Of a stretch of DNA of 64,000 nucleotides, positions 9,014 to 53,254 are shown piece after piece. The notes beneath the pieces were generated by a model. That model did no database searches. It had not been told where the DNA came from and saw nothing but the letters and a program-made list of their open reading frames with translations. The translations under genes and the position numbers were made by a program. Source of the stretch: Monocercomonoides exilis PA203 (lineage: Eukaryota; Protista; Preaxostyla); contig LSRY02000065.1 of assembly GCA_001643675.2 (NCBI GenBank), positions 310,001 through 374,000 of the forward strand. Direction: 5' to 3'. Numbering within the stretch: the stretch's first letter is position 1; each line of letters opens with the position of its first letter.

Positions 9014-9017
9014 AAAT

Positions 9018-14969: not shown

Positions 14970-15026
14970 TAGCCCTGGGTGACGTGAAGAAAAAAATTCG
15001 TTACGTCCGTCACCAATTTTCCACTT

Positions 15027-15066
<40 letters not shown>

Positions 15067-18000: not shown

Positions 18001-18193
18001 ATGTGATATAGTTATTTTGATTAGAAGAATTAGAAAATAATTTCTCACAAAAATTGAAAAATACAGTTTTTTCAAGAAAAATATAAAATATAATGTTGAA
18101 ACTTTTATTTTTCTTTTGTGACTTGGAAAAATCTGTCACGTCCGTCAAAAATAGAAAATGTCACGTCAGAAGTCACCACGTCACCCAGGGCTA
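14970..18193. mobile_element. Non-autonomous hAT-type element (3224 bp) carrying host-gene cargo
   Basis: Perfect 17-bp TIR TAGCCCTGGGTGACGTG / CACGTCACCCAGGGCTA; 8-bp TSD TTCCAAAC (14962-14969 and 18194-18201); clustered subterminal GTGAC/GTCAC/TGACG motifs; no transposase ORF. Confidence 0.92.
15506..16740 (+). pseudogene. Degenerate, intron-retaining copy of the helical-protein family inside the hAT element
   Basis: Translatable remnants LLADLCEYF, KEDNKEAQKEVEMA, EQKLYLYEIKGIIRYQ and HNFTHLACQSA. Introns gtttgt..cag (15541-15564) and gtgagt..aag (~15945-16001) lie at family positions. Many stops and frameshifts. Confidence 0.8.
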
Positions 18194-20186: not shown

Positions 20187-23099
20187 ATGGATAAAGAAAC
20201 CGAGAAAATGCTCAAATCACACAGATGCGAGTGGATAAAACTGAAAAAAAATAGAATCCAATGAGTACACAAACTGTTTGAATTTATTGATTTATCTTAA
20301 AATTTATTTTGAACAAATATGTAATATTAACATAGGTTATTATTATCCTATGCCGGAAGAATTAATTATTTCCAAACCTTCTCTTGATATTGTTAATCAT
20401 TAAATATTTGTTGCATTCACTCCATTGTATAAAGATAGGATTGCAAAAAAGGATATGCACAGACTTTATATGTCTCCGTGCGAAAAAGATGGAGTTGCTA
20501 GTGGAGAAACGCGTCGGAAGGATTCCTCTTTGATTTTTAATCATAAATGTGATTTGATTGCGAATAATCATATCTCTTTATTTTTTTCTCAGAAGTCCAA
20601 TTTATCAACAATTTCTACTGAAAGGTGAAAAAGCAATGGAACTTCTCAAACAACATTGAAAGGTGAGCTCGCTGAATCTTTCATCAATATCGTTGCCCAT
20701 AGTAATATTTCTTTTCTATCAGAAGCAACAAATGAATTCAATGATTTTATTTCAGCATTAATAAAGTCATCACAAGCGAATCCACACATGAGCAGAGAAG
20801 ATATTTTCCCTCTCTTAACAGAGAGAAATGTGAGGAGACTGCTTCATGAAACGAATTCAAAGAAAAATAGAAAAAGCAATTTCAATTATTTCTAATAATC
20901 CCCTTGGAGTTGTCATTGACGGAGGAGTTGTTGGGGGAGAAAGCTACACAGCAGTGGGCTTTTCAACAATGGATCAATTATCGAAACCTATCTTTTGGAA
21001 ATTGTACAAAGGCTGTCGATCAGAATCCGATTATAACAATTTGGGAACAGAAATAATGACAGAGTTGAGCTCTTATGGATGATCTGTCAGAGCTTGGTGC
21101 TCAGATGGACTGAAACCACAAGTTTTAGCTTTGAAAAGGATATCAACTTATGATGGCAAGGAATTATCTGGTTTGTAACACACAAATAATTATCCCAAAC
21201 CAATTTTTATAAGATGTCAAAACCATTTAATCAAATTGGTTGTCAGTCATGCTTTTTCTGAAAATGTTAAACTTAAGAAAATGAAGGAATTGATTAAAAA
21301 CTTCAGTCAGCAAGCACATTTGTCAATTTTCAGAAACATTCTGAAAAAAAGATGCACATCATTTATTGCTACTCGATGGCTGTGCTTGCATAATAATTGT
21401 TTCTTCATAAGGCAGTATAAATCAATAACAAACAAATCCAGCATGCTTTCAGACAACGAAATCTCTGAAATTGCACTCACTGAATTGTTGCTGTATCCAC
21501 TTTATTCGATGCATCTGATTTTTCAAAAAGAATCGACAAAACTTGGAGATGCTTTTCCTATTGTAATTCAACCAATGAATTTGTTTTATTCTTTTTCAAC
21601 AAATGTGTATTTCGTTGATGGAGAATGGCATAACGCATTGATTGATATAGTTATTCTGTTATATAATTACACACTTTGTGATTTTTCTGGACAACTCATA
21701 GCAACATCACACGCGCTAACTCCAATAGGATCACATAAACATCGAATCAACAAAATTCACTTGTGACCCTAGGAAACGTTTGAATATTTTCAAAAAATAA
21801 ATATTATTATAAAACTATTCAAGTTTTTCTTTTATCTCGAAAATATTATTTTATTAAGTTTCTAAAACTATTATTGATGTGTCCAAAAAATCAAGTGAAT
21901 CTTTATCACATAATTGCGGGGAAGATTCATGTGGATCAATGTGTCTGATCCAAAACTCATCAAATACTTCTTCTTTGTCAAATTCATCATCTTCTTTTTC
22001 ATCCTCCTCTTCATCCTCCTCTTCTTCTTTATCTTCCTCCACCTCAAATGTTTCCTCTTTAACCATGTTTCCTATTTTCCAGAATCCTTCTTCGTTTCAG
22101 TCAAAACAAAATCATTATAACACAACATGTTCGGATACACATTTGTCAAACCTTCCATTTTTATCTACTGAAAAGTTGAAAACTGCTTTTGAAAATTCTG
22201 AAAAAGAAAATGATAAATATGGAAAACGTGTTATTGGATCTTCTTTTTCAACTTCTCTAACCACAAATTGCACAAAAGCTATGAATGTTGAGTCCTCAAA
22301 CTCAAAACTGCAAAGTTTGTTTGATTTCATTTCGACTCTTGATTCGAATTCTCAAGAAAACACAGAAGAATGTGAAAAACAATACGAAATCGAAGATTTT
22401 GATGAACAAGATTTGTTCAGATTGATTCTCGCAGAAGAAGAAAAAAAGGATAATGAATATCAACACAAATCCAATGAAACGGATCGTATCAATTTCTCCT
22501 TGACTAGAAAAACAGCTCAGCATGATGAAGTGTCAGTAAGAATGTCAACAGACATTACAAAAAAATGACAAACTGAAGAAGAAATTTCTTGAAATGAAAA
22601 AGAACCAACGAATAATGAAGAAAACAACGAAAGTGAAAGCGAAAGCGATAGTGATGTGGATTTCATTTGCAATTTTTCTCGTTTCAGAAGAATCGAAGAA
22701 TGTGATGCTGATTTTGAAAATCAAACTTAGAAAAATATTTGTGATAACACATTTTCTGATTGGTGTGGAGGGATTGTGGCAGGTTTTTGAGTTATGTTTG
22801 ATCACATGATGTTCGAAAGGCACAATAGAAGAAAATCTCAATGCATGAAGTTTTTTTTAGAATTATCACTTTTCAAAGAGAAAGATGAAATCACCGAAGA
22901 AGATGGTAACAATTTTTATCAAGATTTAAGTAATTACAGAGAAACACATTCAATACTTACTAACATTGCTTTCAGCATAACAACCTCTCCTTGCCGTGAA
23001 TCATTATATGAGAGAATATTTTCAAATTGCTGCATAACAATTGGAGATCATCACCTCAATATTTCAGACAGAACACTCAATGCTCTTCTTCGTCTTTAA
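20187..23099 (+). pseudogene. Decayed hAT transposase with a long Ser/acidic insert
   Basis: GVVIDG (D1), AWCSDG (D2), RCQNHL (CxxH), ATRWL, and C-terminal dimerisation-like SPCRESLYERIFS...ISDRTLNALL. Multiple stops and frameshifts. Degenerate TIR-like taggagtgacgtgaggtgac at ~19749. Confidence 0.85.
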
Positions 23100-23299: not shown

Positions 23300-25434
23300 A
23301 TGAAATATGTGATCTGAGGAGAATAGAATCGAACCTGCATGGAGATGGAGCAAAGAGTGCGTTTATGGTGGGAGGCGGGGCTCTGGATGTGTTGGATGGT
23401 CAAGTTGTGTTTAACAGTCTGGAGGAAGAGGTGGAAGCAGAGGCATGCAATGCGGAAGAGTTTCAGCTGGTGCATGGCACAGGCTTGGAGCTTCCGGTGA
23501 GGAGCACTTGCGTCGTGCTGCAGAATGAAGTGAGCGTGCTTTATGAGACAGCGATTGAGGTGGTGCAAATGAAACGCAAGTCTGTGGAAATGATTCTTTT
23601 GAATATAGGTGTTCCAGAAAGCATGGGAGGAGGAACTGTGGAAGTGGATCTTGGATCTGCGAAGTGACTGAAGCAAAAACAGAAAAGCAGTATTAGGAGG
23701 AACAACTTCAGTGCGCTTGCGCTCGGAGTTCTGTGGGCGATGCGAGTTTTTGTATGTGGGGAGAGCTTGGGAAGCACGGAAGTGGAGGTGAAGCTGTTGA
23801 GGTTCAGCAAGAACAAGACGCGGCGGGGGAAGAATACGCATGTGCGGGAAGTTTGTCAAGGGGTAGTGGCGAAAAAGGAGCGGATACTGTTTGGGTGATA
23901 GATGTGGATGGGAGACGAGGATTCTGAGGAAGAAGAGGAAGAAGAAGAAGAAAATATTTGCTGTTGATTGAGTTTTGTTGAATAAAGGAACTGAATTTGA
24001 TCTGCCTCTGCCTTTTTGATCGGAATTGTTGAGCTGAGAGTCTTCAATATCAGCTGCTGAATGGTTGATGGAATGCTTTGTTGTGTGTTGTGTTTTTGAG
24101 ATTCTCTTCGAAAGACCATATGAATCTGTGTTCAAAGAAGAAGCCAATGAACTTGATGAAGACAAAAAGGTTTGCATCTGAAGAAGATAACTAGATTTTT
24201 CAGAGGGCATGTGAATTGCTTATGATTTGTGTGGCACACTGCACATGCTTCCCATCCACTAATGCCATCACACACGGCAGAGATGAGTCAAACAATAGAA
24301 CAGTCCCACACAGAAGTTGAATGCTGCTTCTGGACACTTCTCTCAGAAACATTGAGGATGTGAACGACTCTGCCCGCTTCTTCAGAGAGAATATCGTTGA
24401 CTGTGTGCGATTTTGTGTATGTGTCTGTGTCTGTGATTGTGATTGTGAATGAGAATGTACCTGTCCCTCTGCTTTGCCTGGTGAAACAAACAATCTTCCT
24501 GTGCTCGCTTTTTCCAGCATTGCCAAGTGCTTCGAGGAAGCAGAAGAAGGCAGAAGACAATCGAGTCTGGCTGTGTTTCCATCTTCATCTGCAAATAGAG
24601 GATAATCTGTGATTCTATTGCTTCTATTGTTTCTATCATTTCAGCTTCTTCTATTGCAGTTGCGGTTGCTGTTGTTGTCTTCGCAAAGCAGAGAAAGCAA
24701 AGAAAAAGAAGCCTTCATCGATAGGAGGAAAGATGTCACTCCTTTCAGCATTTCCACATCATTTGATGGCAGACGCAGATAAAGCAAGGCTGCCGGGGTA
24801 CGCGACGACTGCAGAACAAGAGGCCTTTCACGGAGCATTGAATGTCTTTTGAAAGAAGAAGAAGAAATGTTGATGGAGCGAAGGAAAGAGGATGTTGAAT
24901 GAGACTGCAGCTCGTCAAAGTGGAGGGAGGACTTGAGAGAGGAAGGCTGGTATGTGCTTTGTTGGGTGTAGGGGTGCTGAGAAGGATGTGAAGATTGTGA
25001 AGAAGAAGAAACAGAAGAAGAAACAGAAGGACGAGAATTAATCACATCGCTCTTTGTTCTTCCATGGACTGACTTCACAGGCACAGCGGAAGGGGCTGAC
25101 AAGAACATCGACTGATAAGAAGCGAAGGATGTGGATGAATGGAGCTGATTGCGAGAGAAAGGGAGCATTCCATTTGTGTCCTTTTAGGAGTGCTTTGTGG
25201 CTGCTTCTTTGCCTCTCAGCAGCAGACTGCCTGCGGAGTCAGCTTTTGCAATGGAAGAGTGAGGGTCATGTGGTGATTGATATGATTGAGATGATTGCAA
25301 TGAATTTAATGATTGATGTGATTGGGTAGATTGAATTGGTTGAGATGACTGAGGCGATTGAGGTGTTTGCAATGGAATAGGAGAAGAATGAGAAGGAGAA
25401 GAGGCTGAAGGTGAGGCTGAAGAAGGAGAATTGT
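23300..25434 (-). pseudogene. 3' portion of a Ser/Gln-rich host gene split by the 15-kb element; disabled
   Basis: Acceptor cttaactcacctcag at 25435-25449. ORFs 25184-25372, 24641-25168 and 24200-24526 lie in one frame separated by single stops; frameshifts follow further downstream. Confidence 0.7.
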
Positions 25435-25497
25435 CTGAGGTGAGTTAAGGGGAAAAAGAAGGAGTGACTGTTGATAAAGATGAAGATGTGGAAGAGA

Positions 25498-26191
25498 GGC
25501 ATAGGTGTATTTAAGGTCCTTTTTCGATTCTTGATTATTCTTTAAAACATTATGATAAATAAAAAGTAGAATTAATAATAAAACATTTGTATGGACTGGA
25601 ATTTTGAAATTCTTTTTGATCCTTGAGAAAAAACTATTTTTAAAAATCACCCATAAATCTGAGTATTTTTTCAAAATTTTGATAATAATTGATAATTTTA
25701 AAATAATAAGCAGCTGAGAAGTTGTTAATTATTATATACTCTTATTATAAAAATGATTTTTCAAAAAATAAAACATAAAAAAAAATAAATTAAAAAATTA
25801 AAATATTTTGATCTATCCCACAATTATATTTTTAATATCCAAAAAATAAGAAATTACTTTCTTTCGTCAAGAATTGAACCCCAGCTTGTAAATCTGAGAC
25901 AAATCAAATGTTTAGAAATATTATTAAAGTGTGCAATTAAAGATTATTAAAATTTCATTCTATCCTTAATGAATTTTGTTTATGATTTTTAAGCTGATCA
26001 ATTTTGTGCAGTTTGAGGATATTAATGTTATGCCGTGATGATCTTGAATTAAGAAACGCTGGTGACGCCAACAAAGTTTGAATTTCATATGAATTAACTT
26101 ATTTATAGAATATTTTAACGATTTTCATTATATTTTAATTTATTTTCTTCTGAAATAAGATAGAATGCAAAATGCAAGAGGATATTTATTG
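25498..26191 (+). repeat. Left 694-bp TIR
   Basis: Reverse-complement match to 39925-40618; duplicated ORFs MKKYSDLWVIFKNS... and ...LHFAFYLISEENKLKYNENR. Confidence 0.95.
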
Positions 26192-26610
26192 GATTTGAAG
26201 AATGCATTCTGAAAACAGAATCGCTGGCAGAAATAAAATTCTTTGGGATTGTTGTTCCATCGAGTTTTAAAAGGACAATCTCTACAGTGATTGAATCGAG
26301 CACTCGAAATGGAGAGTTACACATGTCGAACTGCGCAATGAGTGTGAATGGAGTGAAGGGAAACACAATTGGATTTTTCTTGATCAAATCTACAGGAAAG
26401 ATGGTTGAACCGGACTCTCTCATGATTTCAGATGTGAAATCATCAGTCTCGCTATTTTCAATTTCGCTTTCGTCTGGAAATGTGAATAATCAGAACTACA
26501 AGATGAAACTGTTGAATTGCACACAAGAAAGATTGGAGATTGATAGCACATCAGCAGTTGATGGAGAGGCAGCAGCATTTGGAGGGAATATGTGTGATAT
26601 TTTATGAGAT
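26192..26610 (+). pseudogene. Receptor-ectodomain-like fragment abutting the left TIR
   Basis: Open frame ECILKTESLAEIKFFGIVVPSSF...GELHMSNCAMSV... resembles the style of the receptor ectodomain; no start codon, TM or tail. Confidence 0.5.
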
Positions 26611-27559
26611 CATAAAATCGTTGCATCGTTGATCTTTCATGAGTAATTTTTTTTGTTGTTTTATAATTTTCATTTTAAAAAATATTTGTAAATCTGAAGA
26701 GGGATCCTTTTTGAATTAAACAACAAGCAATCGATATAATGTTTTTCAATTAAAGATTTATTGGAAAAAATGTTATGGCTAATTTGATTGTTCAGTTATC
26801 TTTTTTCCATGAAAGTTTATAGACCGGATAAGAAAAGGGATAATGAACATTCTATGTGGGATAAAAGATATAATTTTCCTCAGAAACAAGGTCAGTGAAG
26901 ATTGGGAATTGATGATGGAATTTGACAAGATGATTTTTGTGAAAAGCATCTTTGAAGGAAATACATTTTCCAAAATAACATATGAAAAAATTAATGTATG
27001 CTTTTTTCTTTTGTTCTCATTTTGAACGAGGATGTTTCCATCTGTGGATTTCTCAGAGCTCAAGAATCTGATAAAAAATATAAATGGCTATTTGTTTGTT
27101 TTTCTGAGGAGAACATCAGAAGAGGCTGGATGACGAGAGACAACCATCAGATGGGAATTGCATGCATTTTGTTTTCATTTGGTACAGGGGAAGAAAATGA
27201 ATAAAATTGAAAAGCATTTGGATGAAAGCGAAAAGGAATGAAAACAATTGGGCAGCATTTAGAAAGAAAATAATTCGAGATATTTTTTTCTGAAAAAAAT
27301 TGTAGACAACATCTAAAGCAGGACATTAATGTTTGAATAAAGGATTATGGGAAAAGGAGCGTTGGGAAACAATCGAAAAGGAGATTGACAGCATTAGTGA
27401 TTGGGCAATCCTCTGCATTTGTGATTAGATGGTTAGGTGCGTTCTTTTGAGGAATTTTTTAAATCAATGCAAAACTAACTATTTTAATATCTTTTTTATA
27501 ACTTTTTTTCTCACAGACAACAGCCTTTTTTTATCGAGTGTCATTCGCAGGGACAATCC

Positions 27560-30500
27560 ATTTCAAGCAACATTTTACGAATTATGTGGTTTCTTCTCAG
27601 TCTTCTCCTTCTTCTCATTCTTCGCTATCTTCGCAATAGTCTGCTTCACATGCATTGAATGTCGGGAGTCAGCCTCATTTTGAGCATCCAAGCAGCAGTG
27701 CTTCTGTTCCAATGCAACAAGAAGAAGACAGACAAATTCCTCTATCATCATTTTCTTCCTCATCTTATTCATCTTGTTCTTCTTCTTCTCTCAAAAATGC
27801 ATATTATTCTATTATACATTTTAAAAACCACATGTTTTCAAGATTAGTGAAATGTTTGTTCATTTCAAGAAATTCTTTAAAAGAAAACGTGGGGAATAAG
27901 TTAAAGATGATTTAAATGAAACAAGAAGAAAAAGAAAAAGGTTTCGAAGAAGAAGACAACGCGGATGATGATTTGGGCTGCGAAATCGAAGGATCGATCA
28001 CACACAATGCACACTCAAAGGATAGCAGCATGTTGTTGATCGTTAACTCTTTCTCGCTCGGGAACTGCTTGTGCTGTGCTGAAGAAGAAACAGCAGCAGA
28101 AGATAAAGGCAAGTCATCTCCTCCTTCGTCCTCCCTCTGCCACGCAATCTACTCGTGGAACTGCACCACACCTTTCTCGTATCACAGCAGCATCCCAAAG
28201 CAGTTCGCCACTTCAACCTCATTCCTCCTCAGCTACAGCCCCACAAACTCCACCAGCAGCCGCACAATCCAGAACAGCGCCCGCCGCCTTCTTTCTTCTC
28301 CACCGCCGACTATACAGCCTCCACACGCAGCTTCAGCCCTGCACCTCCCGACACTTCCGATAGCACCCGCACGCAGTCGTACAGCTCCGGCTTCAGCAGC
28401 TCCAAGTGCAGGCTCACAGTCTTCGCAGCTGCTCAATTCTCAGACGCTGTCAGAGGCGCCTGCCGGTCGGACAAATCGCATACCTTCAGCAGCCGCGGGA
28501 ATCGCGCGAAGATGTTGTTGGGCTGTCACACCTCCCGCACAGACGCAAACGATGACAGACAGCTGCCTGACAGCCTGTACGCATCCCGGAAGATCCGCAG
28601 CGACAGCGACTTTGGAGTATGCAAATAACACACACAGAAGTGATTCCAGTTCTCCAAACACAATTCCTCTGAAAACTGCCTCTGATGGTAAAAATGAAGA
28701 AGTCCATGCATTTCCAGAACATTTGACATCACACAGCACCTTCATCTCCTCCTTCAGCTTCGCTGCCTCTGCGCGGCAGTTGTTTGGCAGAAACCTCCGA
28801 AACACAGATGCATCTGCCTCTCCCTTCTCCGACTTCATCCTCTCAAATTCACAAAAAAATATCTTGATCTTCTTCTCAGAAGCCCTTTCAAACAACGTGT
28901 TGGAGCACTTCTGGTACATTTGGAACGATTCTATCAGGAAGTTTTCGCTCTCTTCCGTCAGCTGCTGTAACAGAACACACTTCAAGCAGTAGCGTGTCAC
29001 AGTGCATGAAGAACAACAGTTCATCTTTAGTGAACAATTCATGAACAAACTTTCCAAACACCCGTTCCTCCGCAAAATCCTTCAGGAACAGCTAAACACA
29101 GTGAATCATCGCCTTCTGCACAGCTTCACTCTTCTTCTGATTCTCAATCACCCCTTGAACAGGGCCCTTCTGCTTTCTTGTTATCTGTGCGTGCACTTTC
29201 AGCAGCTTTATCAGAATCTTCGTTTCCTTCTTCATCTGGTTCGTCTTCTGCTTCTCAGTTGTATCCACTCATCCTCCATCACCATCGCCAACGTTTTCTG
29301 CTCCACCACTGCTTGCTTCTCCCACAACACTCACTCCGCTTCCCACTTTCATATCAACCCGCTTCCAGCTCGGGTTTGTGTCGAACATCACAGCGCTGCA
29401 ATCTTCTATGCTCGCTGAAAACTTCTCCTGGAATTTTTCAAACAGATGCGACTGAAGTATCAACGAAATCAAAAACAGAACCATCACTTCTTGCACAGAG
29501 AAACCAACGAAGAAGATATGAAAAGCTTAACCCCCATCCACAAGTTTTCGCTAACCATCCACACTCACAACTCCATCCTGTTGCATCTTGCGTTTCTTTT
29601 CATTCGAAATCCACTCAACACTCAGTTCAACATTCTCATAATCGCAACATACTGACCTGCAGCTCCTTCACCTATTCATTGCACTTCTCGCTCAGCTGAA
29701 GAATCTTCCAATCACACATCTGGATGAGATTGCCATTCCCTCACACAACTCTTTTAGTCACTCGTCAGCTTCAAAAGCCTCTTATCATTTCAAATATAAT
29801 GCATCCTCATGTTGAACTCCATAAACTTCTTATCCGTCTCCTGTTTCACCACTTAATGTTTTTTTTTCTCTTCTACTACTCCTCCTCAGTCTTTTCCTTC
29901 TTCTTCCACTTCTTCTGCTTCTTCTGCTCCTTCTCTCTCCTCCATTACAACCAGCACAATCGCTTCCATCACATGAACGATATCCTCCATCTTCAACATT
30001 TCCGCCTCCATCGCCATCTCCCAAAATTTTCCTGCACTTTGTTCACTGCAACCACAAGCCGCATCACTTCCTCTTTCATCTTATTCGTCATCACAACGCT
30101 CCTCGACTTCATCGATTGCAAAACCAGCCACGCTGTCTCCAACGGAAGCAGCTACGGACAAAAAAGATATGTAGATCGATGGGAACGCATCCACACTTGC
30201 ACAACAAAGACATTCTTGCTTCCAGACTTTATCAACAGCGATTCATCAATAGAAGGAAGCGGAGCAACAAGCGCAATAGAAAGCATCATCGAAAGCACAA
30301 CTTCAGAGGTGCACTCAACGGCCCCAAGCAGCACCGCCTTCCGCGCCACAACATAACCTAGCAGTTTCTGCAGCAGCATCTGCTTGTTACGTACATACAC
30401 CCCAGCCGCCTTAGGCACCAAAATCCGTAGTCGAATCTCGATTTCATTCATAGCTGCTACCGACATCTATGATGCCACAGCAGCCGAGGCACCCGATGGA

Positions 30501-30820
30501 TAAATCGCAGGCGCTGATGAAGATACGGATGATTTATTACACCTGTCACGTTCTTCTCTTTTCTTCTCAACATCTAGATTGAAGAGCCAAAATGGAGTTA
30601 TGCTCCAGTTGAAGAAGAAGATGAAGATGGAGAAAATAATAAAGGCGCAGAGTGAAGCGAAGACTTTGGTGAAGGATCAACCTCAAGAAGCTTTTTCAAA
30701 TACTCCAAAACGTCAATCCGTAGCTCTTCCAATAACAGAAACACTTCATTTATATCAGGATCAGATATATCGATCATCGGCCAATGCTCACCGTTTTTGT
30801 GTGATAAGAACTTTTTAACA
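27560..30820. pseudogene. GC-richer decayed coding fragments of unknown identity (cargo)
   Basis: Coding-like composition with overlapping broken ORFs (27916-28992, 29002-29418, 29724-30356); no motif recognised and strand uncertain. Confidence 0.35.
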
Positions 30821-31580
30821 ATAAATTCTCCTTGAAATATCTAAAAGAGGAAAAAAAAGATGAGAAAAAAGCAAAAGAGAAAATTTCATCCACAAAAGAT
30901 GTGATTCGTCATAAGATTCAAAAAATGATTCATATCATTTTGAGTTTTTGATTTCAGGTCTTTTGATGTTGATATTGCAGATAATATTAGATTTTTTGAA
31001 ACATAAGTAATCAATTAATTTGTTTTAATTCTTGAATATAATTTTTCGTTCTTGAGTATTATTACGTTTGAATTCTCGTTATCATTAACTTTCAAAAAAA
31101 TAATAAAAGACATACGACTTTTCACCTTTTCGTATTTTCAACTCATTGAAATATAGAAATGTTTATGAAAGTTCAAAAAATAAAAATGTCTTTTCAAATG
31201 GATGAAACAAAAAAGGCAAAAATTAATGGAAATAAGTGTTTGCAACAAATAACAACAAATAGTTAACTTTTTAAATCAAATATGAAAAGTTAATTCAAAT
31301 ATTTTGTGAAATAGATCTTTTTGAAACTTTATATTCGATGATACGCAAAAGAAATACAAATGTGAAATTCACAAAAATAAATGATGGGAACGGAATGATC
31401 AACATTTAATAATCATTTTTTTTAAAAGGGATAAAATAAATATCATGTAACTTTTCAAAGAAAAATACCCATTTGTTATTATTATAAATATTTTTATTAA
31501 AATAAATTGTTTTTTTCTCCAATTCAATCTGTCACATTTGAAGAGTCGAATTTAATGATCCCATAAAAAATCACCCATAT

Positions 31581-31834
31581 GGGTCATTCTTTTTGAAAAG
31601 TCGCAAATGGTTTATTTTTGGGTTTAATAAAATTGAACGTTTTTTGACCAATTTTTTCTTTAAATACTGAAACCTTAATAATATCTTGAATTTGAATTAA
31701 CGAACCAATTTGATGTGAGGAAAAGTGCATGCTCGAGAAATCTGATTGATTCTTTCCTAAAAATTGTCAAATTAGGAACATTTTTTATTAAACTCATTAA
31801 TTAAACATTTGCGATTTTTCAAAAAGAATGACCC
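31581..31834. mobile_element. 254-bp MITE (family C) with ~55-bp TIR flanked by ATAT
   Basis: gggtcattctttttgaaaagtcgcaaatggtttatt... / ...ttaaacatttgcgatttttcaaaaagaatgaccc; ATAT at 31577-31580 and 31835-31838. Confidence 0.8.
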
Positions 31835-34800
31835 ATATGGATGTTGGGATGATACTGAATGGAAGCAATATTGAAGGGGCATTATCAGAGAAGAGTGAAG
31901 AAGGAGGAGCATTGAAGATCGTTCTGAAGAATGGAGGATATATGACAATTCAAGAGAGTTCATTTACTGGATGTATTTGCAAGAATATGAGTGAGGGAGG
32001 AAAAGGAGGAGGGATGTATCTGGATTGCTGTTCGAATGGAGGAGGATTTCAGCTTTTATTGATATCCTTTTCTGGATGTTCAGCAACAGTTGGGAAGAAC
32101 ATGTTTGAAAAGAGCAGCAATCTGGTAAACAGTGTGAATACAGAGCGTTTTTCAATTGTTAACACAGATTACGTGGAGAATGGGAATGCATTTGTTGGGG
32201 AAGATGAGAAATATGGAGAAATGGATCTGCGAGTGTTTCTCGTTGAACTGAAGTGGGTGGAGGTATCTGTATCGACTGGTGGGCATGACACATTGGGGTG
32301 TGGAAGTGATGCGTTTCCTTGTTATTCGATATATCACGGCCTGGTGCATCTGACATCAAAATCTGTTTGTCTGATGTTCATTGTTGATGAGAGTGTGATT
32401 GATAGAGAGATAAATCTGGAAGAATTGAATTTGAGTTCGAAGAGCAGAGAAAATTGTAAAGTTGAAGTGAAATCAAGAATTGAAAAAACAAAGGATTCTT
32501 TGATTTCAACAAGAGAAACAGTCTCGTTGGTGAGAGTGAATTTTATGTTTGATTCGTATTTCATCTCTTCACATGAATCATTGATGTCACCCGAAGGAGG
32601 AATTCTTGAGATAAAAAATTGCTCATTTGACTCAACACAATCAGCTGGAGAAGGAAGTATAGAATTAGCAAACATTCCATTTCACATTATCAACATGGAA
32701 AAAGGAGAATTACAACTTGATGGATACACAATATCAAATCTCATTCTTCAAGAATCTGCATTATATCTTTCATCATCACTTCCATCAGTGATTTATTTGT
32801 TTGAGATCAGCAATCCAACAGTTTCTCATTCGCTTGTTGAAATTATTGAATGTGGACAGTTGAATGTGGATAGATTATTTGTTGAAAATATCACAGTTGA
32901 AGGAAATGAAGAATCATTAATATCTTGCCTGTCAATGAAAAAGACAATTCAGTTAGCAAATTGCACAATAGGTGGAGTCAGTTCAAAGACTACAAAAGGA
33001 AAATTGATGAAGTTGGAGAATTGTTTGGATGTGAAAATGGACAGTTGCATTTTCGATGGAAGTTCAAAGGAAAGAAATGAACAATATTTGAATGTGAAAG
33101 AAGAGATGTGCAGATGGTCAGGATCTCTTGTGGATGTTGTGAAGAGTTCTGTGATGATGAAAGATACAGCAATCTCGAGTTCAGCAGAAGGCGGAATAAC
33201 AATGAGAGGTGGAAATGTGATTATTGAAAAAGGAAAGTTTATGAACAAAAATCCATCAATTGAAGGATATCCATCGCTGAGAAGGAACATGATATGTTCA
33301 GATTCTGGAACATTGAATGTGAGGAGTTTGAAAGGTGGTGATGGAGTTTTGCCAAATTCATCACTTTGGATGTTGAATGATGGGTGCAATTTTGAAGGGA
33401 TTGTTTCAGAGAGAGATTCATCGTTTTTCATTCCTGTGTTGGAGAGTGTGGAAGCAAAAGAAGAGACAGATAGAATGAAGCTGACATTTAAAGGGATGCT
33501 TCTTGTTCCATGCAATCTGTCATTTTCAGTTGTGAAGAGGAAGGGAGAGGAGAAAGAGATTGAACATTATGATTTTGATTCAAATGGATTCTTTTCGGAA
33601 ATAGAAGTTGAAGGAAGCGTGTCAAAAGATCTGATCAGCAGTTGTGAAGATGAAATTGATGTGAGCGCGCATGTTTTGTTTGGGAATGCAGAATCTTCAT
33701 CTTTAACAGATTCATTCATTTTGAAGAATGCGAGCATTACTCCACCAAAAGGAGATGAAAAGATTGTTGAAGGAGGAAAAGAAAGGAGGCGGTCATGGGC
33801 GTTGATAATCGCTGTGATATTTATTTTATTGTTTTTGATTGTTCTTGTAGTGTCTATTATTCTGGCAGTTCGATGGAGAAAGGCAAAGAACGAGAACAAA
33901 GATTTGAGAAAAATTGTGAATGATAACTTCAGAAAAGATCCGAAGTTGATTGAGATGGTGACGATGGAGATATCGCCTGAGGAGCAGTGGAGGAGAGCAG
34001 AGAATGAGGCAGAGAAGAAGAATGAAGAGAAGATCAAGAAGAGGGTGTATGAGAAAACCTTGGGGCATTCAGAATCATCAGAGCATTTGCTGGCTGAGAG
34101 TGGATCAACTGAATATATTCTGGGAAGAGATTCAGACAAGATCCCTCAATGGATGCTGGAGAAGGTTGATGAGGAGACGAGAAAGAGAATACCATCACCA
34201 TCGGTCTCATCCACTTCATCCACTTCAACAACTGACTCAGATTCAACATTTGTTCGAGGGGAAGATCTGTGCCCCACCACCTCATCAATGTCGAACTTGG
34301 TGGATGCAATGGCATGTTCATCTCCGCACGAGAAATTGATTGTGGATCTGAGGGATTCATTGTTCATGTTGTTGCATGGAAGGAATGCGAAGAAGGAGAT
34401 GGCGATTGGATCCTTGAAGGAGAGGGAGCAAACAGCTGCTCAGATCATGTTCTGGGTGGCTAATCTTGCTCTCCACTCATTTGATGAAATGGAAAATCCT
34501 CTTTCTTCTCATTCCAATCTGAGTCCTCATATCGTTCTGTTCTCAGAGCACATGGTGATCTGCATTGTGATGCATTCTGATTTGCTTTTGTCTGATGACT
34601 CAGATTCATCGTCGATTTCTTCATCGACTGTTGTGACTTCTGCAAGTGATGAAGATGAAAGTGACTCTCTTCCCTCATCAGCATTTGAAGATGAAGATAG
34701 CTTCAAAAAAGAGTGCCTGAGGTGGAAGGCATCTGAATTACTGATCAACAAGAAGATGGGCGCAACAAAGGAAACAGTTTCATTTTCGATTGGGATGATG

Positions 34801-35028
34801 GTGTGGGAGTGTTTGACGCTGGAGATCCCATTTGGAGACTTTGAGGCAGAGACTGTGGGAGAGAAGATAAAGAATGGAGAGAGTGCGGTTGTGGAGTTAA
34901 GAAAGTTGTGGAGAGCACGCACAGAATGTGGAAGAAAGGGATATAATGATGGATGTGAATTGTGTATTGTTCAAGCGCATTCCATTGGACATAGTTTTTT
35001 CGATGATGATTCATTCAAAAATTGTTGA
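31828..35028 (+). pseudogene. 5'-truncated paralog of the receptor pseudokinase (partial ectodomain, TM, kinase-like tail) with an aberrant 3' end
   Basis: Cytoplasmic tail near-identical to 1-6729 (MEISPEEQWRRAE, SESSEHLL.ESGSTEYILGRDSDKIP, DLRDSLFMLLHG). The ATG lies in the MITE TIR; no signal peptide; APE changed to ASE; homology lost after ~34885. Confidence 0.82.
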
Positions 35029-35570
35029 GACAGAGTCTTAAAGCGAGAATGCATTACTCGAGTATTTTCATATGTGTGGAGTGCGGATGGAAAAATGTTG
35101 AGAAGAAAATATTCTTTCCTAACAATTCTTTAGGAGAAAGACCAGAATGATAATATGAAACAAAAGAAAATTTGATTCAAATGAGTTTTTATATGTTTGA
35201 AAAAAATTGAGTTTGCAGCGATGAGTTAACAATTGGAATTTAACAAAATGGAAAACAAATTCAAACTTTTTAATAAATAAACTAAATTATCACGTAGGGT
35301 TAACCTTTTGAAATAGTGTTCTCATTATTTTTATGAGTGAAGACAATGCTGTGATCATGTTTGTTTTTGATTATTTTTTTTTTTTGTTTTGTTTTTTTGC
35401 AAAGAGAACATGATAAAAATTTTGCAAATTATTAACAAAATATACTTAAATTTTATATCAAAAAGAAATTTAAAATCTAATTCCAAATGCAATTTTTTTT
35501 GAAATTTTTCCATTATAAATATTCAAAAATTTAAAAATTTGATCATTTGCAGAACAATTATATCAAAAAC

Positions 35571-37078
35571 ATGAGTGAGAACGAATTATTGGAAAAAGAA
35601 TTAACTTTCAGTGAGTTTATTATTCAATAGAACAACAAAAACCATCTTGCAGTAGAATTGTTATCAAAATACGGATTAATCAGAAAAAATAGGAAATGTT
35701 GGAAATACAAAAAAAATATGAATCTGAAGTTGCAAAAAAAGGAAAACGATTACTATGCCTACAAATGTTCAAAATGTGGAAGAATTTTTCGTTGGAGTTA
35801 TAATTCAATATTCATGGAATTTCACTTATCACCAATTAAAATTGTATCTCTTTTATATCATTTTTGGTACAAGCATTCAATAAAGGAAGTTACTTTCGAG
35901 CTGAATGTTGCAAACAAAACTGTTGTGAAATTTAATGAAAAGATGAGAAGAATATGCTGCTTTTTTGAAACGAGCAAAATAGAAAAAGTTGGAGACAATT
36001 GCATTGTTGAAATCGATGAAACTTTAATACACAAAAGAAAAAATGGAGTGGGGAGATGCACAGAACAGCAGTGGTTGTGGGGTGTTATTGAAAGAAAGGA
36101 AAAAGGAAAGCCTCAAAAGCTGATAGTTGAATTTCTTCCTGATAGAAAAGCAGATACAGTTTTTTACTTCGTTAAAAAAAACATTGAAAGATCATCAACA
36201 ATAATGTCTGATAAGTTGTCAGCATACAACTGCATAAGTGATAATGGCTTCACTATAGACAGCGTAAATCACACTCTTAATTTTGTTAAACCAGAAAATC
36301 CAAAGGTTAACACGCAGACTATTAAAAGCATCTGGTCTCATTTGAAAAATCATATTCCAAAACGAGGGAGATCATATTAAAAGACAAAGGAATATGTTTA
36401 CGAGTTTCAATACAGATTCAACAATCGACTTTCTCCAACCGCATTTATGAAAGAATTATCAAAGATTGATAAGAAAAATTTGGATGTCTTTCTTCGTGCT
36501 TACAATGATAGTGCTGAAAATATGATAAGTGTTTTGAATAAAGAAAGAAAATTCAAATTATCATCTTATTATTTGAAAAAAGAGGAAATGAAAAGAAAAA
36601 AAAAAGAAACTATGAAATGGTTGATGAAAGTGAGCTGGATGAAGTTTTAAAGAAAAAAAGATTATCGAAGAAATTGATTGAAACAAATAATATTGAATTT
36701 TTAAAAAGAAGAAAAATTGATGATGAAGAAGAGAAAGAAGAGAAAGAAGAGAAAGAAGAGAAAGAAGAGAAAGAAGAGAAAGAAGAGAGAGAAGAAGAAG
36801 AAGAAACCATCTCAGATTTAGAAACAAAGACTGTTAGAAAAAAAAGAAATATTAGAAACAGATCAAAAAATGGTAGATTCGTGAAAATTACAGAGAATCA
36901 ACAGATTGAAACTTTTATTCTTGAATCAAAACTGTTTTGTGAAAAAAAGGAAACAAAAATTGAGGAGATGGAGAAAAAAGAAAAAGAAAAAACAAAAACA
37001 ATTCAAAATCGAAAAATTCTTGGAAGTTTCATCAAATCAAAAGATATTGGAACCGAGCAATATCCTATTGGTTTGTAG
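35571..37078 (+). pseudogene. Merlin/ISXO2-like transposase, inactivated; TIRs not found
   Basis: YKCSKC, IVEIDET, WLWGVIER, IMSDK, VNH..NFV.P, NTQTIKSIW (catalytic E replaced by K) and YVYEFQYRFN. Stops at ~35628 and 36378; acidic (KEE)n tail. Confidence 0.9.
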
Positions 37079-37329
37079 ATAAATGTATCACAACACTTTA
37101 TTTCACATCACTTTTAAACGATGTTCAAACAATGCAATAAAATTACAAATTATCTTTTTTTGTTTATCATCAAATTTGTCAAAACATGTGAAAAGATTCT
37201 TATCTAATTGTTGGAATTGCATTTATTGAACTGAAATTCAATTATTCTATTTGAATATCCATATTGCAATAACAATCAGATTGAATACAATCACTCAACC
37301 ACAATTTTCTCATTCTCAAACAGCATGAT

Positions 37330-39924
37330 TGTTGTTGTTTCAGAAAACAAACTGGAAATCAAGTTCTTCCCAAAATAACCATCATCTCACCATTAATTGA
37401 ATTAAGTTTCGCCTCATCTTCTCACTTCACAAACTTTCCTCTCCTTTTTTCTTTTCCAGTTTCTTTTCACCCGTGTCCACATCACTCTCTTACTCCACAC
37501 CATTCCTCAAACAACCCAGATAGTAATTCCACAACTTTCATCTACTGTTCCTTTCACAAATACAAACTCAAATCAGTTCTTTTTTAAACATCGTTCTTTG
37601 ATGTTATTCTCTTGAAACTGTTTTGATCTCACAAACTTCAGCACATTAGCTCAAACACTCTATTTTTTTCATCCACATTACAACCACATCATTCTGCAGC
37701 TGCACTTCTCAGAACAGTTTTCTCCTCTCCACTCAGCTCAATCTCCATCACTCCCCCTTCTCTGCTCCTCTCACTTGTAACTCCATCCCCCTCAAAGCTC
37801 TCCACAAACACACTCGAATGCACAGCAAATGGCACATTCTCAAACGATGCTCCCCTGACAGAGCAGTTCTGCACATTCAGCATCCCAATCAGCGTGCTCA
37901 CAATCCTGTATCCAACAACCCCACTCTCTCTCTCCACTCAAACCCCACATTCAACACATTCACCACCCCACCTTCTGTTCCCAGAACTATGCTTTGCCCA
38001 GTTCCAAACACCTGCGGAAGACTTATCGCAAACATTCTCACACTCAGGCGCTCATCACTCCACATCACAGCTTCACATCCATTGCTCTTTAGCTCCCATT
38101 CAACATGCATCTTCGCCTGCTTTGCTTTTTCTGCCTCATGCCCACATATTATTGTTCTTCGCTCATACACAAAGCAGTCACTCACCACACATCTGTCGAT
38201 CACCACAACCTTCTGCTCTTTTTGCTCACTCTCTTCCTTCAGATGCACTATCCCACACCAAAGCATCTCACATGCAATCTCCTCTTTCCCACGCCCCAGA
38301 ACATCCATCCCGCGCCCTTCCGACACATGCACCTCATCTCCGCTGAACTTCACCAGGAACAGAAGCAAATCAACACTCTCCCTTGCAAATCTTCCATCAT
38401 CCCTCCCTCGCAGCTCCACTTTGCTTACACCATCTTCGCCCACAAGCTCCATGTCAAACCGTTTCGGAAGGATTGTTGCATTCAAATCCTCACACACCAC
38501 AAACATATCTGCTCCTTCCCCTGCCCTGTTCCTCTCAAACACACACCCCTTCTCCTCAAAGTAATATGAGCAGCTCTCCCCAACAACACTCATACACATC
38601 CCTCCTCCTTTCTCTTCACTCCCCCTTGCCGAGCATCCTTCAAATGTGCTGTTCTCAACAACAACCACCACGCCTTCTGCCACCTCACACTTCAACTCCC
38701 TCCCACTCCCTTCTTCAGATCCACACTGAAAATATCGAATTGTTTCCCACTCTGCATCTCTTTCCTCGTTTTGCAACAACCCCGCTCCTCATTCTCATCT
38801 CGCATCTGTTAATCCTTCTCCAACTTATCTCCAGCTTTGATCGTTTCTCTCCAACAACTACCCCTTCTCCTCCCTCAGAATCACTCCTTCATAAAACTCA
38901 GTCCCTCTCACAAATACGCTCTCCTTCTGAATCTCTATGCATTTCACGCTCACCATCCACATATCAACCACCAAAGATCCACTTTCTTCTTTGCTTTCTT
39001 CACCTCCAATCTGACAGTCAACAATCATCACAACCCTAACACTAATCGTTGCATTCTCCTCCTTTTTCATGTTTTTCATCCCTTTCCACGTTGTGAAGCA
39101 CGGCTCTTCTTCACTTCCACATCTTGCAACATCAAATCCTTCTGATGAAATAAATATCTCCATTGAGTTGTATGGAACGAGGAACATGAACAAATCTTTA
39201 TTCGAATGATGACTATCACTTCCTACAAACAAATTGTTATCGCCTGTCATTGATGAGTAATCAAATCTGAATGCTAAAGTCGTAACAGAAAAATTAAAAT
39301 CCTTTCCCAAAATGAACTCATTCTTTCCTATGACTGCATTGCTGTTCTCAAAAATTACATCAACATCAAAAAGAAATGGCTTCTCATTCAAACAATTTTG
39401 GAAATCCAAATAAAGAAATCCTCCTTTTCCATTTATTGATGAAAGCGAACAAGATGACGCATTTGTTGATTTTATTTCCAGTTTTTCATTCCTTTGCAAT
39501 GTGATTTTTGCAACACCACCTTCTCCACTGCCCTTGTTCTCAATATTTGTTAAGTTGCTGCTTTCAAACAAAACAGAAGAAGCCATCACCATGGAGATTC
39601 ACCAAATGAACGCTCTGCCAAACTGCATCCCTTGAATGTGAAACTTCAACTGGTTGTTATCTACGAAATTTGATCAATATACTTTGTTAATAAAACATTA
39701 AATATGTATTTCATACATTGAAGATGTCCACATGATAAGATCAAGGACTTCATGCTTAGCGCATATTGATTTGGGATGTGATGTTGATGTAATCAATGTA
39801 AATATCATTTCCCACTTTTGCTGTGTTTGCATTGAACTTCATTTCAACAAATCCATATTCGAATCTCCTCTTTTTTGCTGCCAAATACACTTTTCCTCCT
39901 TTTCTTGTGCAGTTGTTGTTGCTT
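37330..39924 (-). pseudogene. Chimeric, frameshifted receptor-ectodomain fragments abutting the right TIR
   Basis: GKGGFLYLD..NAVIGKNEFI, FDVARCGSEEEPCFT and EKGGGMCM..NRAGEGADMFV match repeats of gene 1-6729; abrupt composition change near 39060. Confidence 0.8.
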
Positions 39925-40618
39925 CAATAAATATCTTCTTGCATTTTGCATTCTATCTTATTTCAGAAGAAAATAAATTAAAATATAATGAAAATCGTTA
40001 AAATATTCTATAAATAAGTTAATTCATATGAAATTCAAACTTTGTTGGCGTCACCAGCGTTTCTTAATTCAAGATCATCACGGCATAACATTAATATCCT
40101 CAAACTGCACAAAATTGATCAGCTTAAAAATCATAAACAAAATTCATTAAGGATAGAATGAAATTTTAATAATCTTTAATTGCACACTTTAATAATATTT
40201 CTAAACATTTGATTTGTCTCAGATTTACAAGCTGGGGTTCAATTCTTGACGAAAGAAAGTAATTTCTTATTTTTTGGATATTAAAAATATAATTGTGGGA
40301 TAGATCAAAATATTTTAATTTTTTAATTTATTTTTTTTTATGTTTTATTTTTTGAAAAATCATTTTTATAATAAGAGTATATAATAATTAACAACTTCTC
40401 AGCTGCTTATTATTTTAAAATTATCAATTATTATCAAAATTTTGAAAAAATACTCAGATTTATGGGTGATTTTTAAAAATAGTTTTTTCTCAAGGATCAA
40501 AAAGAATTTCAAAATTCCAGTCCATACAAATGTTTTATTATTAATTCTACTTTTTATTTATCATAATGTTTTAAAACATTATCAAGAATCGAAAAAGGAC
40601 ATTAAATACACCTATGCC
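39925..40618 (-). repeat. Right 694-bp TIR
   Basis: Reverse complement of 25498-26191. Confidence 0.95.
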
Positions 40619-40702
40619 GAAAATATTATAATAGAGAAGAGAAATTATCAAATAATTACAAAGAAAAGCGTTATGCATTGAAACTGATTTGAATAAACAA
40701 AC

Positions 40703-41043
40703 TCGTATATACTTTGTTCTGAGGCTACACAAATACAAAGAATTAGGAAATAAATTGGGAAGAGAGAGAGAAAGAAATAGAAAAAGAAAAAGAAAAGGAG
40801 AAGGAGAAGGAGAAGGAGAAGGAGAAAAAAAAGAAAGAGAAAGAGAGAAGGAGAAAATAAATATGACATGGATAAGTTAAAAAAGAAATAGAGAAAGACG
40901 ATTAATTTGACACAAACATGTTGCTGTTGCTTTCTCGAATGCAGTCTTTGTTGAGCAGCTGATACACTTTGCTCCATCCTCAATGGCTCAGATGTCAGCT
41001 CTTCTATTTCCTTTGACAAACTTGATGCAACATTTTCCAAATG
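40703..41043 (-). pseudogene. Upstream exons (41043-40918, coiled-coil-like; 40724-40703, 22-nt micro-exon) of the gene split by the 15-kb element
   Basis: cag|HLENVASSLSKEIEELTSE...QQH|gtttgt, then tag|CCTCAGAACAAAGTATATACGA|gtttgt. The phase-1 end matches the exon starting at 25434. Confidence 0.65.
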
Positions 41044-42519
41044 CTGGAGGTGAAAGAAGAAGTAGAAGAAAAGAGATAAAAGAAAGAAATGCAAATATTC
41101 TGATGGAAGAAGAAGAAAAGAAGAATTAATAAGAAGTATTCGAAATGAGTTGATGGAAGATGAATAATTGAATCAAGTAATATCGATACGAGGAGAAGGA
41201 GAAGAAGGAGAAGAAGAGAAAGAAAAAACAGAAAAAGATAAAGATAAAGATAAATCAAAATAAAAAAGTCAATGCGAATCGCTGTAATGATCACTAACTT
41301 TTCATTTGAACAAAGCTAAAACTATCACAAAAAATCAGAGCAACAATTAAATGAAAAAAACAAATAAAAATTATAAGAGACTTAAATAAAAATGAACTTT
41401 TAATTCAAATCAGATTGTTTTTAAACATTTTCATAACAAATAAAATTTATTCATATTCATGGAAATTGATTCTCTCAAGTCAATTTATTTCTGAACAACA
41501 TATCAAACAAATATTTTTTGAAAAAATAAACAATTGTTAAATAAAAAGGAATGAATTTTCTTTAACGAATTGCAAAAAAATGCAAAATAAAAATTTCGAT
41601 AATTATGACACTCAGAAAAAACTTGTTAAACATGAAAAATCACTACGGTTTTAAGCCTTTGAAAAATGATAAATAATAAAAATGAGATACTGAAAATAAT
41701 GCTTCAAAAACATTGAAAAATGAATTGGAAAATCTTTATGTGAATTTGCATAGAATGATAAGACGTCTGTCAAAGCGAAAATAGTATTTTAATAAATGAA
41801 AATTTTGGTAAGGTTTATTGATAGTGAATTGTGAGTAAATTTTTGTTTTGAAAATTTTGAATTATTGGAAAGTGTTTTATTTTTTTCAAAGCATAATTAA
41901 AAAAAATTGTTTGCTTTTATCTTTTAAAAAAAAACAGTGCCGGGCACTGACTGACGAGAGATCCACATTTTTCAAGGTGACGCAGATGTTTACACAATCT
42001 AATCATGATAAGTCTTTCATTCTCATTTCAAAAAAAGCATGTGAAATTTTTCAAAATTGAAAAATTTATTAAACGCGCAGAATGGAACAAAATTCATTGG
42101 GCAAAAATTTTTATCCCAGACAGGTGATTTATTTTTTTGAAATCATAAATTTATTGTCAAAATATTATGTTTGAAAATTTGTTTTTCATTTTCGTGAAAG
42201 AACATTGAATAGTGATAACAATGTCTTCAAAAAAGAATTTTCATGAACGAATCTCGAATGAATGCTTTCGTGACAAAGGAAATTCAAAAATATATGGAAA
42301 TGATGATTTCCAAGCCATTCACAAAAGATAACTATTAATTCATCTCCCCGAAAAAAGTTATGATTGTTATTATTATTTCCAAAATTTAATTGAAATAATG
42401 CATGACAAAATTTTTGAATTAATTTGAAATACAACGAATTGTTCCAAACTTTTTCTCCATCGCATCATTTTTTATCTATCATTCCCATGCATAATAATGA
42501 AAAAAAATACAATTAATTT

Positions 42520-42758
42520 GTCCAAATTTTTTGAAAAGTTCATTTTATTTAATTTTCAAATAAGACAAAAATATCATATTTCGATCGAATTTCTGTTCCC
42601 ACTGACAATACTTCACAAAAATGGAAACATAAGCATTGTCAAGATTTTGTTTTCATGGCAGCGAAATTTGGTGAGAGGGAACAGAAATTTGATCGAAATA
42701 TGAAATTTTTATTTAATTTGAAATTTAAACAAAAGGAACTTTTCAAAAAAATTTAGCC
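42520..42758. mobile_element. Second copy of MITE family B
   Basis: Colinear with 8359-8598; internal inverted arms tcgatcgaatttctgttccc / gggaacagaaatttgatcga. Confidence 0.75.
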
Positions 42759-43924
42759 ATATAAATGATAAATTTCATCTAAACCATTTCAAATACTAAT
42801 GTTTAAGATGAAATAAAGAAAAACATTTGTTGGATAAGAATGTTCACTTTTCAGTGATCATTTACAAATATTCAGATAAAAAATTTTTTTCAGTATTTTT
42901 TGATAGAAAAAATTGATTTCAAAAATAATCGCCCATATGAACACTAAAATAAATTATGCGCTTTTATTTGTCAGAGAACAAATAACAAAATAGGGCATGA
43001 AAGTGACAAAATCCAATTAAAAAGTGAAATCAATTAAAGCTTGACATTCTATTTGCAAATTTCAGATCGAAAGAAAGATGTTGATGAAATTAAGGACAAG
43101 GAAAGAAAGGTTGCATAATGATGTTATTATAGACGAAAGAAATGGAATTGAAAGACTTTTGAATAAGTTTTCAAAAAGTTTTTTTAATTTTGAATTTTTT
43201 GATGATTCTATTCTTTAAATTTCCTCAGGTTATTAATAAAGAATTATTATTTTTTAAATGGGACAAAACATTTGTCTTCAGGCATTTTAAATGGAAAATT
43301 TTTCATCTTTGATGAACTTTTTGTGATCAAAAATTTTGAAATAAACGGGTTTGTTTTTTGAAATACGTTTGATGTCACAAAACATAATGTTGTCATATCA
43401 ATGATGTTTGTGTTCATATTTGAAAATCAAATTTATTTTGAAATCTGAAAGTTATTGAAAAAGTTATTTGTTAATCAATTTTTTCATGCATTGTACAAAA
43501 AAAGCTTGAAAGTCTATATTTTCCCTCATATTTTTTCTTCTTTTCATAAACTCTTATCTTTTATAGTATTATCACTCCTTGACGCATATATGCGGTCCAC
43601 AAATAATTATAAAAATTGTTTGTTGTTTTATTTTATTTTATGATACTGTTTATTTTCGAAAATGTCCAATATATATTAAAAATATTATCATAGAATTTCA
43701 TCTTCGAACATTATTGAAATGTCTTTCATGTGAATTCTTATCCTGAAAAGGTGAAAAACAATATTTTCTCTATGCATCATCTTAATTAATGGATTTTTTT
43801 ATCACTTATAATTTGTTAACAGTATTCACATTCTTATTTTTGTATTTTTTTCGTTTTCCTTATTTTTGTTTAATTTTTCAATTTCATTTATTCAAACATG
43901 AACACTCACATACACAAACACATA

Positions 43925-52460: not shown

Positions 52461-52491
<31 letters not shown>

Positions 52492-53006: not shown

Positions 53007-53068
<62 letters not shown>

Positions 53069-53219
53069 ATTATTATTGTATATGTATATGTATTGTTTTT
53101 TCTTTCTTTCTCTTTAAATATCAAATATATTTCTCTTTCTCATTTCTCTTTCAAATCTTCTTCTCTTCCTTTCTTTCCATCTCCCCATCTTTCAATTAAT
53201 AATTTCTATCTATCTACCT

Positions 53220-53254
<35 letters not shown>

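Follow-up and report, generated by a model that had tools for sequence, protein, structure and literature searches.

Structure of the locus

We analysed 64,000 nucleotides of Monocercomonoides exilis PA203 (contig LSRY02000065.1 of assembly GCA_001643675.2, positions 310,001 to 374,000), hereafter the window, in which an element of 15.1 kb (25498-40618) with long inverted repeat arms and Merlin-like ends lies between two pieces of what is probably one decayed serine-rich (Ser-rich) gene on the minus strand. An 84-nt piece of intron adjoins the element on the upstream side of this host gene and a 63-nt piece adjoins it on the downstream side. The initial annotation had joined the two pieces into one phase-correct intron of about 147 nt, and had taken this as independent evidence that the whole 15 kb arrived in a single insertion. 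The explanation that we favour, to which we would give an even chance, is a cargo-laden, non-autonomous element with Merlin-type ends in an intron of the Ser-rich gene, one flank of which later lost DNA.

Arms and ends of the element

The two arms are 694 bp long each and occupy 39925..40618 (minus strand, non-coding) and 25498..26191 (plus strand), both with the outer end GGCAT... Both ends of the element read GGCATAGG, i.e. they form terminal inverted repeats (TIRs) that start with 5'-GG as in Merlin. We compared them by eye with the published ends of the Merlin families F1-F7 of Monocercomonoides: according to the accessible part of PMC8101967, the ends of F1, F2, F4 and F6 begin with GGCAT, those of F5 with GGCAA, of F3 with GGTAT and of F7 with GGTAA, and more than 100 copies of Merlin are present in the genome, which fall into at least seven families and have repeats of 23-29 bp and target duplications of 8 bp. 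One contig in the Merlin-region supplement of the same paper contains a stretch that shares with the element end its first 12 bases and, by eye, 30 of its first 39; the records of this supplement are visible to about 400 bases each, and more relatives are possible there.

The arms are 99.3% alike and differ at five positions only, four of which fall into the outer 43 bp (P = 7e-5). This clustering suggests an older, imperfect terminal repeat on the outside and a younger part, copied or converted between the arms, on the inside. The terminal repeat proper may comprise the outer ~43 bp. No remnant of a transposase was found in the arms.

The probable host gene on both sides of the element

The upstream part of the host gene, at about 41 kb, begins with exon A (40918..41043, minus strand; 126 nt or 42 codons, phase 0 at both ends), which lies directly 3' of a CT-rich tract that ends CCTCCAG. 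Its frame is the sole open one and the best scorer under a coding-versus-intron model, with 52.7 bits against 38.2 and 18.2 bits for the other two frames. The following intron (40725..40917, minus strand) has 193 nt, is CT-rich, runs from GTTTGT to GTAG and contains CTAAT 22 nt before its end. It is followed on the same strand by a micro-exon of 22 nt (40703..40724), which encodes PQNKVYT plus a single A and ends in phase 1, and by the 84-nt 5' part of an intron (40619..40702), with the donor GTTTGT, a GC content of 23% and an intron-like composition in all frames. This 84-nt piece may be nearly the whole of a short intron without its AG. In 18,600 nt of minus-strand DNA, most of it non-coding, GTTTGT occurs seven times, and it serves as donor in two of six introns of neighbouring genes that were validated by stop-free splicing; because the motif is scarce and in use nearby, the two upstream exons appear to be more than a product of chance and, from these sequence features, look real. 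A protein search with exon A found no relatives among 18 candidates of 75-2000 residues, which is weak evidence, and further upstream exons of the host gene were not identifiable between 41300 and 44100. A possible small spliced gene or set of 5' exons (44073-43690, minus strand) with a GTAAGT donor and a 47-T tract stands head to head with a gene encoding tetratricopeptide repeats (TPR).

The downstream part is a Ser-rich exon (23733..25434, minus strand), pseudogenised, of a family known only from Monocercomonoides exilis. The AC at its start and the A of the micro-exon together give Asn, and the frame continues as NSPSSASP..LQTPQSP. It is interrupted by stop codons at 25186 (TAA), 24643 (TGA), 24202 (TGA) and 24193 (TAG). 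An alignment with MONOS_8140 runs through three frames, with 76%, 81% and 70% identity, and paralogs carry R, W and Q where the host has the stops at 24643, 24202 and 24193; one further stop and two frameshifts are also present in the host. The comparison supports the earlier view that the Ser-rich 3' piece is a pseudogene, the paralogs used being short predicted frames themselves. A reading of stop codons as Gln (table 6) was tried and rejected: the only TAA codons that long frames gain are terminal or intronic, and the 3144 codons of the frame 54568-63999 include 76 CAA or CAG but not a single TAA or TAG, as under the standard code. The stops in the host gene are therefore real.

A 155-residue frame of the exon has a letter-for-letter match in the protein collection. 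Its named relatives, all from Monocercomonoides exilis and with 77-80% identity, are MONOS_9479, 8140, 18425, 10270c1-3, 4939 and 14353. In four of six paralog models the start is the internal Met that the window's own model also uses, one model has an unrelated N-terminus, and none of the six reaches the first 108 residues of the exon. For the 5' part of this exon a search among 622 candidates of 156-497 residues, likewise weak evidence, gave no protein matches, and 81 pattern matches to paralog DNA in metagenome contigs yielded no confirmed case.

Junctions between element and host gene

The exon and intron coordinates of the initial annotation and its arithmetic (126 nt, 22 nt, 84+63 = 147 nt, A+AC) are right, and the rejoined 84+63 nt have a GT donor, a pyrimidine tract, an AG acceptor and a compatible phase. 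The phase, however, does not discriminate. Only the phase of the acceptor counts, because an intron has no frame, and four of the first five AG dinucleotides past the element fit phase 1 (with exon starts at 25467, 25434, 25416 and 25404). Likewise, 113 of 250 YAG triplets in three intact coding frames of the window are phase-compatible. The phase match is thus not more than chance and provides no evidence for a rejoined intron, let alone an independent line of it. The common fit probably stems from Ser codons such as TCA followed by G, which give CAG in that phase. Splice signals of Monocercomonoides exilis are not treated in the accessible part of PMC6679479.

The 63-nt piece itself (25435..25497, minus strand), which ends CTTAACTCACCTCAG, can be read either as the 3' end of an intron or as a Ser-rich exon remnant with one nonsense codon. 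In the frame of the downstream exon it reads SSTSSSLSTVTPSFSP, then a stop, then LTSD. Several of its properties are those of an exon: its GC content is 41%, compared with 44% in the next 63 nt and 29-33% at the ends of two host introns, and 15 of its 21 codons have C as their second base (exon frame; shuffle P = 0.0002). Its first 45 nt score 7.1 bits as Ser-rich coding sequence in the exon frame, whereas the same stretch of eight introns scores at most 2.7 bits in any frame. Of 290 G-poor coding windows, 133 score at least 7.1 bits; among 276 overlapping intron windows five do so, and these five come from a single intron. The 'branch point' of the piece (TTAAC, 14 nt before CAG) includes an in-frame TAA, and such a branch-like motif is present in only three of the eight introns. 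Other properties favour an intron end. The last 18 nt resemble a true 3' splice site and are very like those of the validated intron C, and the 63 nt as a whole score only 0.7 bits, a value that C-rich intron ends also cover (their scores go up to 4.0) and that falls short of the 5th percentile for coding windows (2.6). Moreover, an exon requires one nonsense codon in 21 here, while the downstream exon has four stops in 422 codons, and the intron model was trained on eight introns only (six validated, two from the host). With this small training set in mind, we consider the 63 nt somewhat more probably an exon remnant than an intron end.

The 8-mers that flank the element differ at five of eight positions, i.e. 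the 8-bp target duplication of Merlin is absent. At the mapped ends nothing longer than a 2-bp GA is repeated exactly; this repeat has a chance probability of about 0.11, and shifting the ends by -4 to +4 revealed no duplication above 2 bp. Decay does not explain the missing duplication, because five differences in eight positions have a probability of only 0.0004-0.01 at 10-20% divergence. Perfect duplications have been kept by three decayed elements nearby: a Merlin at 18204-19690 (8 bp), a hAT-like element at 14970-18193 (8 bp) and a miniature inverted-repeat transposable element (MITE) at 31581-31834 (4 bp). An exchange of duplications was not detected either: neither flanking 8-mer, nor its reverse complement, adjoins an element-like end inside the segment. 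The element's terminal 8-mer CCTATGCC recurs at 20347, followed by a 6/8 match to the left flank (20347-20362 for both together); we regard this as probably due to chance, because the bases inside bear no likeness to the arm. Since the junctions lack the target duplication of a clean insertion, the neat 147-nt intron is probably not the original insertion site, and a rejoining of the flanks into the original intron is not supported, the more so as the balance for the 63 nt is about even or tips somewhat towards an exon remnant.

The interior of the element

The interior is a mosaic, in which two clear fragments of a large membrane kinase-like family with repeated ectodomain units lie in opposite orientations. 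The window contains one member of this family at 1-6726 (plus strand), a frame open over 2242 codons that starts outside the window and encodes repeated ectodomain units, with PF07714 matched in part at its C-terminus. The first fragment (37600..39902, minus strand; the limit at 37600 is approximate) is decayed, is cut at the arm and shows 30-38% identity to that member. The second (31835..35028, plus strand) is the 3' half of another gene of the family, open over more than 1000 codons, truncated at its 5' end and 45.6% identical to residues 1124-2183 of the same member. A 147-codon frame (26164..26607, plus strand) starts inside the left arm and is weakly like the kinase-family ectodomain: it scores 11.5 bits against a profile of the window's repeats, the best of 200 shuffles 6.6 bits, and has no blastp match. 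It is perhaps a third fragment of the family by its sequence; its single-sequence fold, with a mean predicted local distance difference test (pLDDT) of 38.6, was uninformative and not used.

The MITE mentioned above (31581..31834, 254 bp, no strand assigned) is a foldback that sits in a kinase-family frame and is flanked by a 4-bp ATAT duplication. Compared by eye, a similar foldback has inserted into one of four published copies of Merlin F6, as far as the accessible part of the source extends. At least this piece of the interior, with a duplication of its own, inserted separately. A single arrival of the whole 15 kb therefore does not follow from rejoined flanks, which could date the outer ends only and leave the age of the interior undated.

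A Merlin/IS1595-type transposase (35571..36647, plus strand; PF12762, 73 bits with a cut-off of 27) contains two in-frame stops, and a charged frame that extends to 37078 may be its shifted C-terminus. None of 378 GG..CC pairs qualifies as its own ends (best pair: 8 mismatches in 22, no duplication), although this transposase is less decayed than the control Merlin 18204-19690, for which the same scan did recover both ends and duplication. The lack of own ends fits the outer arms being the ends of the transposase. A stop-interrupted, coding-like region at 27350..30500 (plus strand; limits approximate), a decayed gene, has no Pfam match. Pfam families of polymerases, integrases, capsids and ATPases were found in none of the nine element frames scanned, which are the longer frames only. 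Homology to the host gene was not found inside the element, nor does the host gene continue at the inner edges of the arms.

Neighbouring elements and genes

The decayed Merlin at 18204-19690 is complete, with 1487 bp, imperfect repeats that start with GGTAAG (like family F7), a perfect 8-bp duplication and, on the minus strand, a transposase with stops and frameshifts. It occupies the right-hand duplication of the 3.2-kb hAT-like element at 14970-18193, a Pack-type element whose terminal repeats read TAGCCC.. and whose 8-bp duplication is perfect. This element carries a fragment (15714-16107) about 70% alike to a host multigene-family member at 13877-14276. Three decayed members of a multigene family, with 67-70% likeness at the DNA level, lie at 9703-11100 (minus), 13224-14572 (minus) and 15700-16500 (plus). 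At 20200-22568 (plus strand) broken frames with RCxxH and TRW motifs are reminiscent of a hAT transposase; they have no Pfam match.

A foldback at 7539-9597 has 584-bp arms, 97% alike, around a nested palindromic element (8113-8836), and a palindrome at 42512-42766 shows 74-79% likeness to the central part of the palindrome at 8.1 kb. Two intact, very Ser-rich genes follow on the plus strand: one with TPR repeats (44131-53782) and one with a weak FPL-domain match (53977-64000), whose last exon exceeds 3100 codons and runs off the window. Six introns of these two genes were validated by stop-free splicing, which leaves one terminal stop in 2304 codons in one gene and none in the second.

Relationship to known elements

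The Merlin families F1-F7 of Monocercomonoides, related to IS1595/IS1016, share with the element the 5'-GG ends (mostly GGCAT), the imperfect outer repeats and the organism; a DDE_Tnp_IS1595 transposase is present here too, but may be a passenger. As far as the accessible part of PMC8101967 shows, they differ in their size of about 1.4-1.9 kb per copy (15.1 kb here), in their repeats of 23-29 bp (694-bp arms here, outside the published Merlin TIR range of 24-462 bp) and in their 8-bp duplications, which are absent here. The transposase inside the element is, in addition, broken and located 4-10 kb from the ends, and the element has a cargo of host genes. Merlin superfamily duplications measure 8 or 9 bp; because no such duplication flanks the element, it is not classed as a Merlin. 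Functionally, it corresponds to a Pack element with Merlin ends.

Pack-MULEs and other Pack-type TIR elements, in the accessible part of PMC3310237, likewise are non-autonomous and have long inverted arms around host-gene fragments; in contrast to these, the ends here are Merlin-like instead of Mutator-like, a single copy is seen and the unit has no duplication. Galileo and other foldback transposons, as described in the accessible part of PMC2775673, possess long arms more than 99% alike within a copy and, as a result of aberrant transposition or ectopic recombination, rearranged flanks without matching duplications, but Galileo belongs to the P superfamily and makes 7-bp duplications, and an exchanged duplication was not found at the element. 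In its cargo of host-family fragments the element is unlike Polinton/Maverick elements, whose genes for a protein-primed polymerase, an integrase, a capsid and an ATPase have no counterpart by Pfam among the longer frames scanned here. The latter resemble it with a size of ~15 kb and arms of several hundred bp, and make a 6-bp duplication, which is absent here. Pack-MULEs produce duplications of 9-11 bp, none of which occurs at the element, and are usually smaller than 15 kb.

Origin of the locus

In the explanation that we favour, insertion of the unit would have begun with a Merlin-type transposase binding to the outer ~40 bp and would have produced an 8-bp duplication. Later, an aberrant transposition of one end (of the hybrid-element or neighbouring-site type) or an imprecise repair would have removed one copy of the duplication. 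The original acceptor and the first part of the exon were probably lost in the same event, with the 63 nt slightly more likely exon than intron. Such a loss of flanking DNA would explain the missing target duplication, and aberrant transposition and recombination between copies are known to leave unmatched flanks and flanking deletions (PMC2775673, accessible part). The inner 650 bp of the arms would have been copied or converted between the two sides after the outer ends had diverged, and part of the interior would have come by nested insertion, which makes 15 kb the present size and not necessarily the size at arrival. Both flanking gene pieces would derive from one gene: they share a strand, the upstream half lacks a 3' end while the downstream half that it faces lacks a 5' end, and the intron style, CT-rich with GTTTGT, is that of the intact Ser-rich neighbours. 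What stands of the proposed single insertion that split one gene is a repeat-bounded element of 15.1 kb between 5' and 3' gene pieces on the same strand; the inferences on intron, phase and single arrival are not supported.

Several observations speak against our explanation. The link between the two gene pieces rests on strand, complementary halves and intron style, with no direct tie between the halves, and protein searches found no single protein on record that joins the 41-kb exon and the 25-kb exon. A second copy of the element was not seen, so that its mobility as a unit is unproven, and both the 694-bp arms and the size of 15.1 kb are above the published ranges of Merlin. Finally, no similarity was detectable between the arms and the DNA next to the inner transposase, which may for this reason be a passenger.

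The discrepancy between Merlin-type ends and unmatched flanks can have other explanations. On the one hand, one clean insertion might have taken place into a short intron of about 145-147 nt, with a 2-bp duplication or none and the 63 nt as the intron 3' end. The donor, the pyrimidine tract, the TTAAC 14 nt before CAG and the fitting phase are all present, the GA repeat flanks the element, C-rich intron ends occur in the neighbour genes, and with this length the intron would come close to the average of 119-124 nt given in the accessible part of PMC8767320. Nevertheless, we consider a clean insertion unlikely: the phase suits four of five nearby AGs, the GA repeat has the chance probability given above, the first 45 nt are periodic in the frame of the exon, and the ends look like those of Merlin, which in this organism makes 8-bp duplications.

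Alternatively, the flanks might stem from different genes or loci, brought together in a hybrid element by recombination of two copies through their long arms, by a large deletion or, less likely, by a mis-join of the assembly. Unmatched flanks are expected when two copies recombine or cooperate in transposition (PMC2775673, accessible part), both halves occur together in no protein on record, one paralog model has an unrelated N-terminus, and truncated genes abound in the region. Yet the halves share the strand and complement each other, and the flanking 8-mers or their reverse complements do not stand beside element-like ends inside the segment, so that an origin from different loci, too, seems doubtful to us. 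An origin without any movement of the 15 kb as a unit, in which one Merlin-type end with 650 bp was duplicated in inverted orientation around resident repeat-rich DNA, is the least probable of all: the interior does resemble the repeat-rich DNA outside, other long foldbacks exist in the window (such as the 584-bp arms at 7539-9597), the target duplication is missing and no second copy was seen, but plain copying of one end would not leave four of five mismatches in the outer 43 bp, and would leave unexplained the complementary gene halves on the outer sides, with no continuation of the host gene at the inner edges.

Implications for the genome of Monocercomonoides exilis

A transposon in a dead gene is an ordinary event; the element itself may matter. 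Merlin elements that carry cargo were not found in the literature searched, whose scope leaves most subscription journals outside. According to the accessible part of PMC8767320, the genome of Monocercomonoides exilis contains about 28.9 Mb of unclassified repeats, which often overlap protein tyrosine kinase genes and the nature of which was left open; the kinase family is the largest in this genome (PMC8767320 and PMC6759080, accessible parts). In the window, a 15-kb unit with Merlin ends and full of kinase-family fragments is accompanied by the hAT-like element of 3.2 kb, which has its duplication intact and contains a fragment of a host family. This suggests that cut-and-paste elements may capture and scatter pieces of the kinase family and of other host families, although one locus without a duplication is no proof. 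It is conceivable, if at present improbable, that the element represents a family of giant 'Pack-Merlin' elements with Merlin ends and arms grown to ~700 bp, whose cargo of host DNA, 10-15 kb in length and moved along with them, would include parts of the largest gene family. If true, Pack-Merlins would be one engine behind the expansion of tyrosine-kinase-like genes and behind the ~29 Mb of unclassified repeats that overlap those genes.

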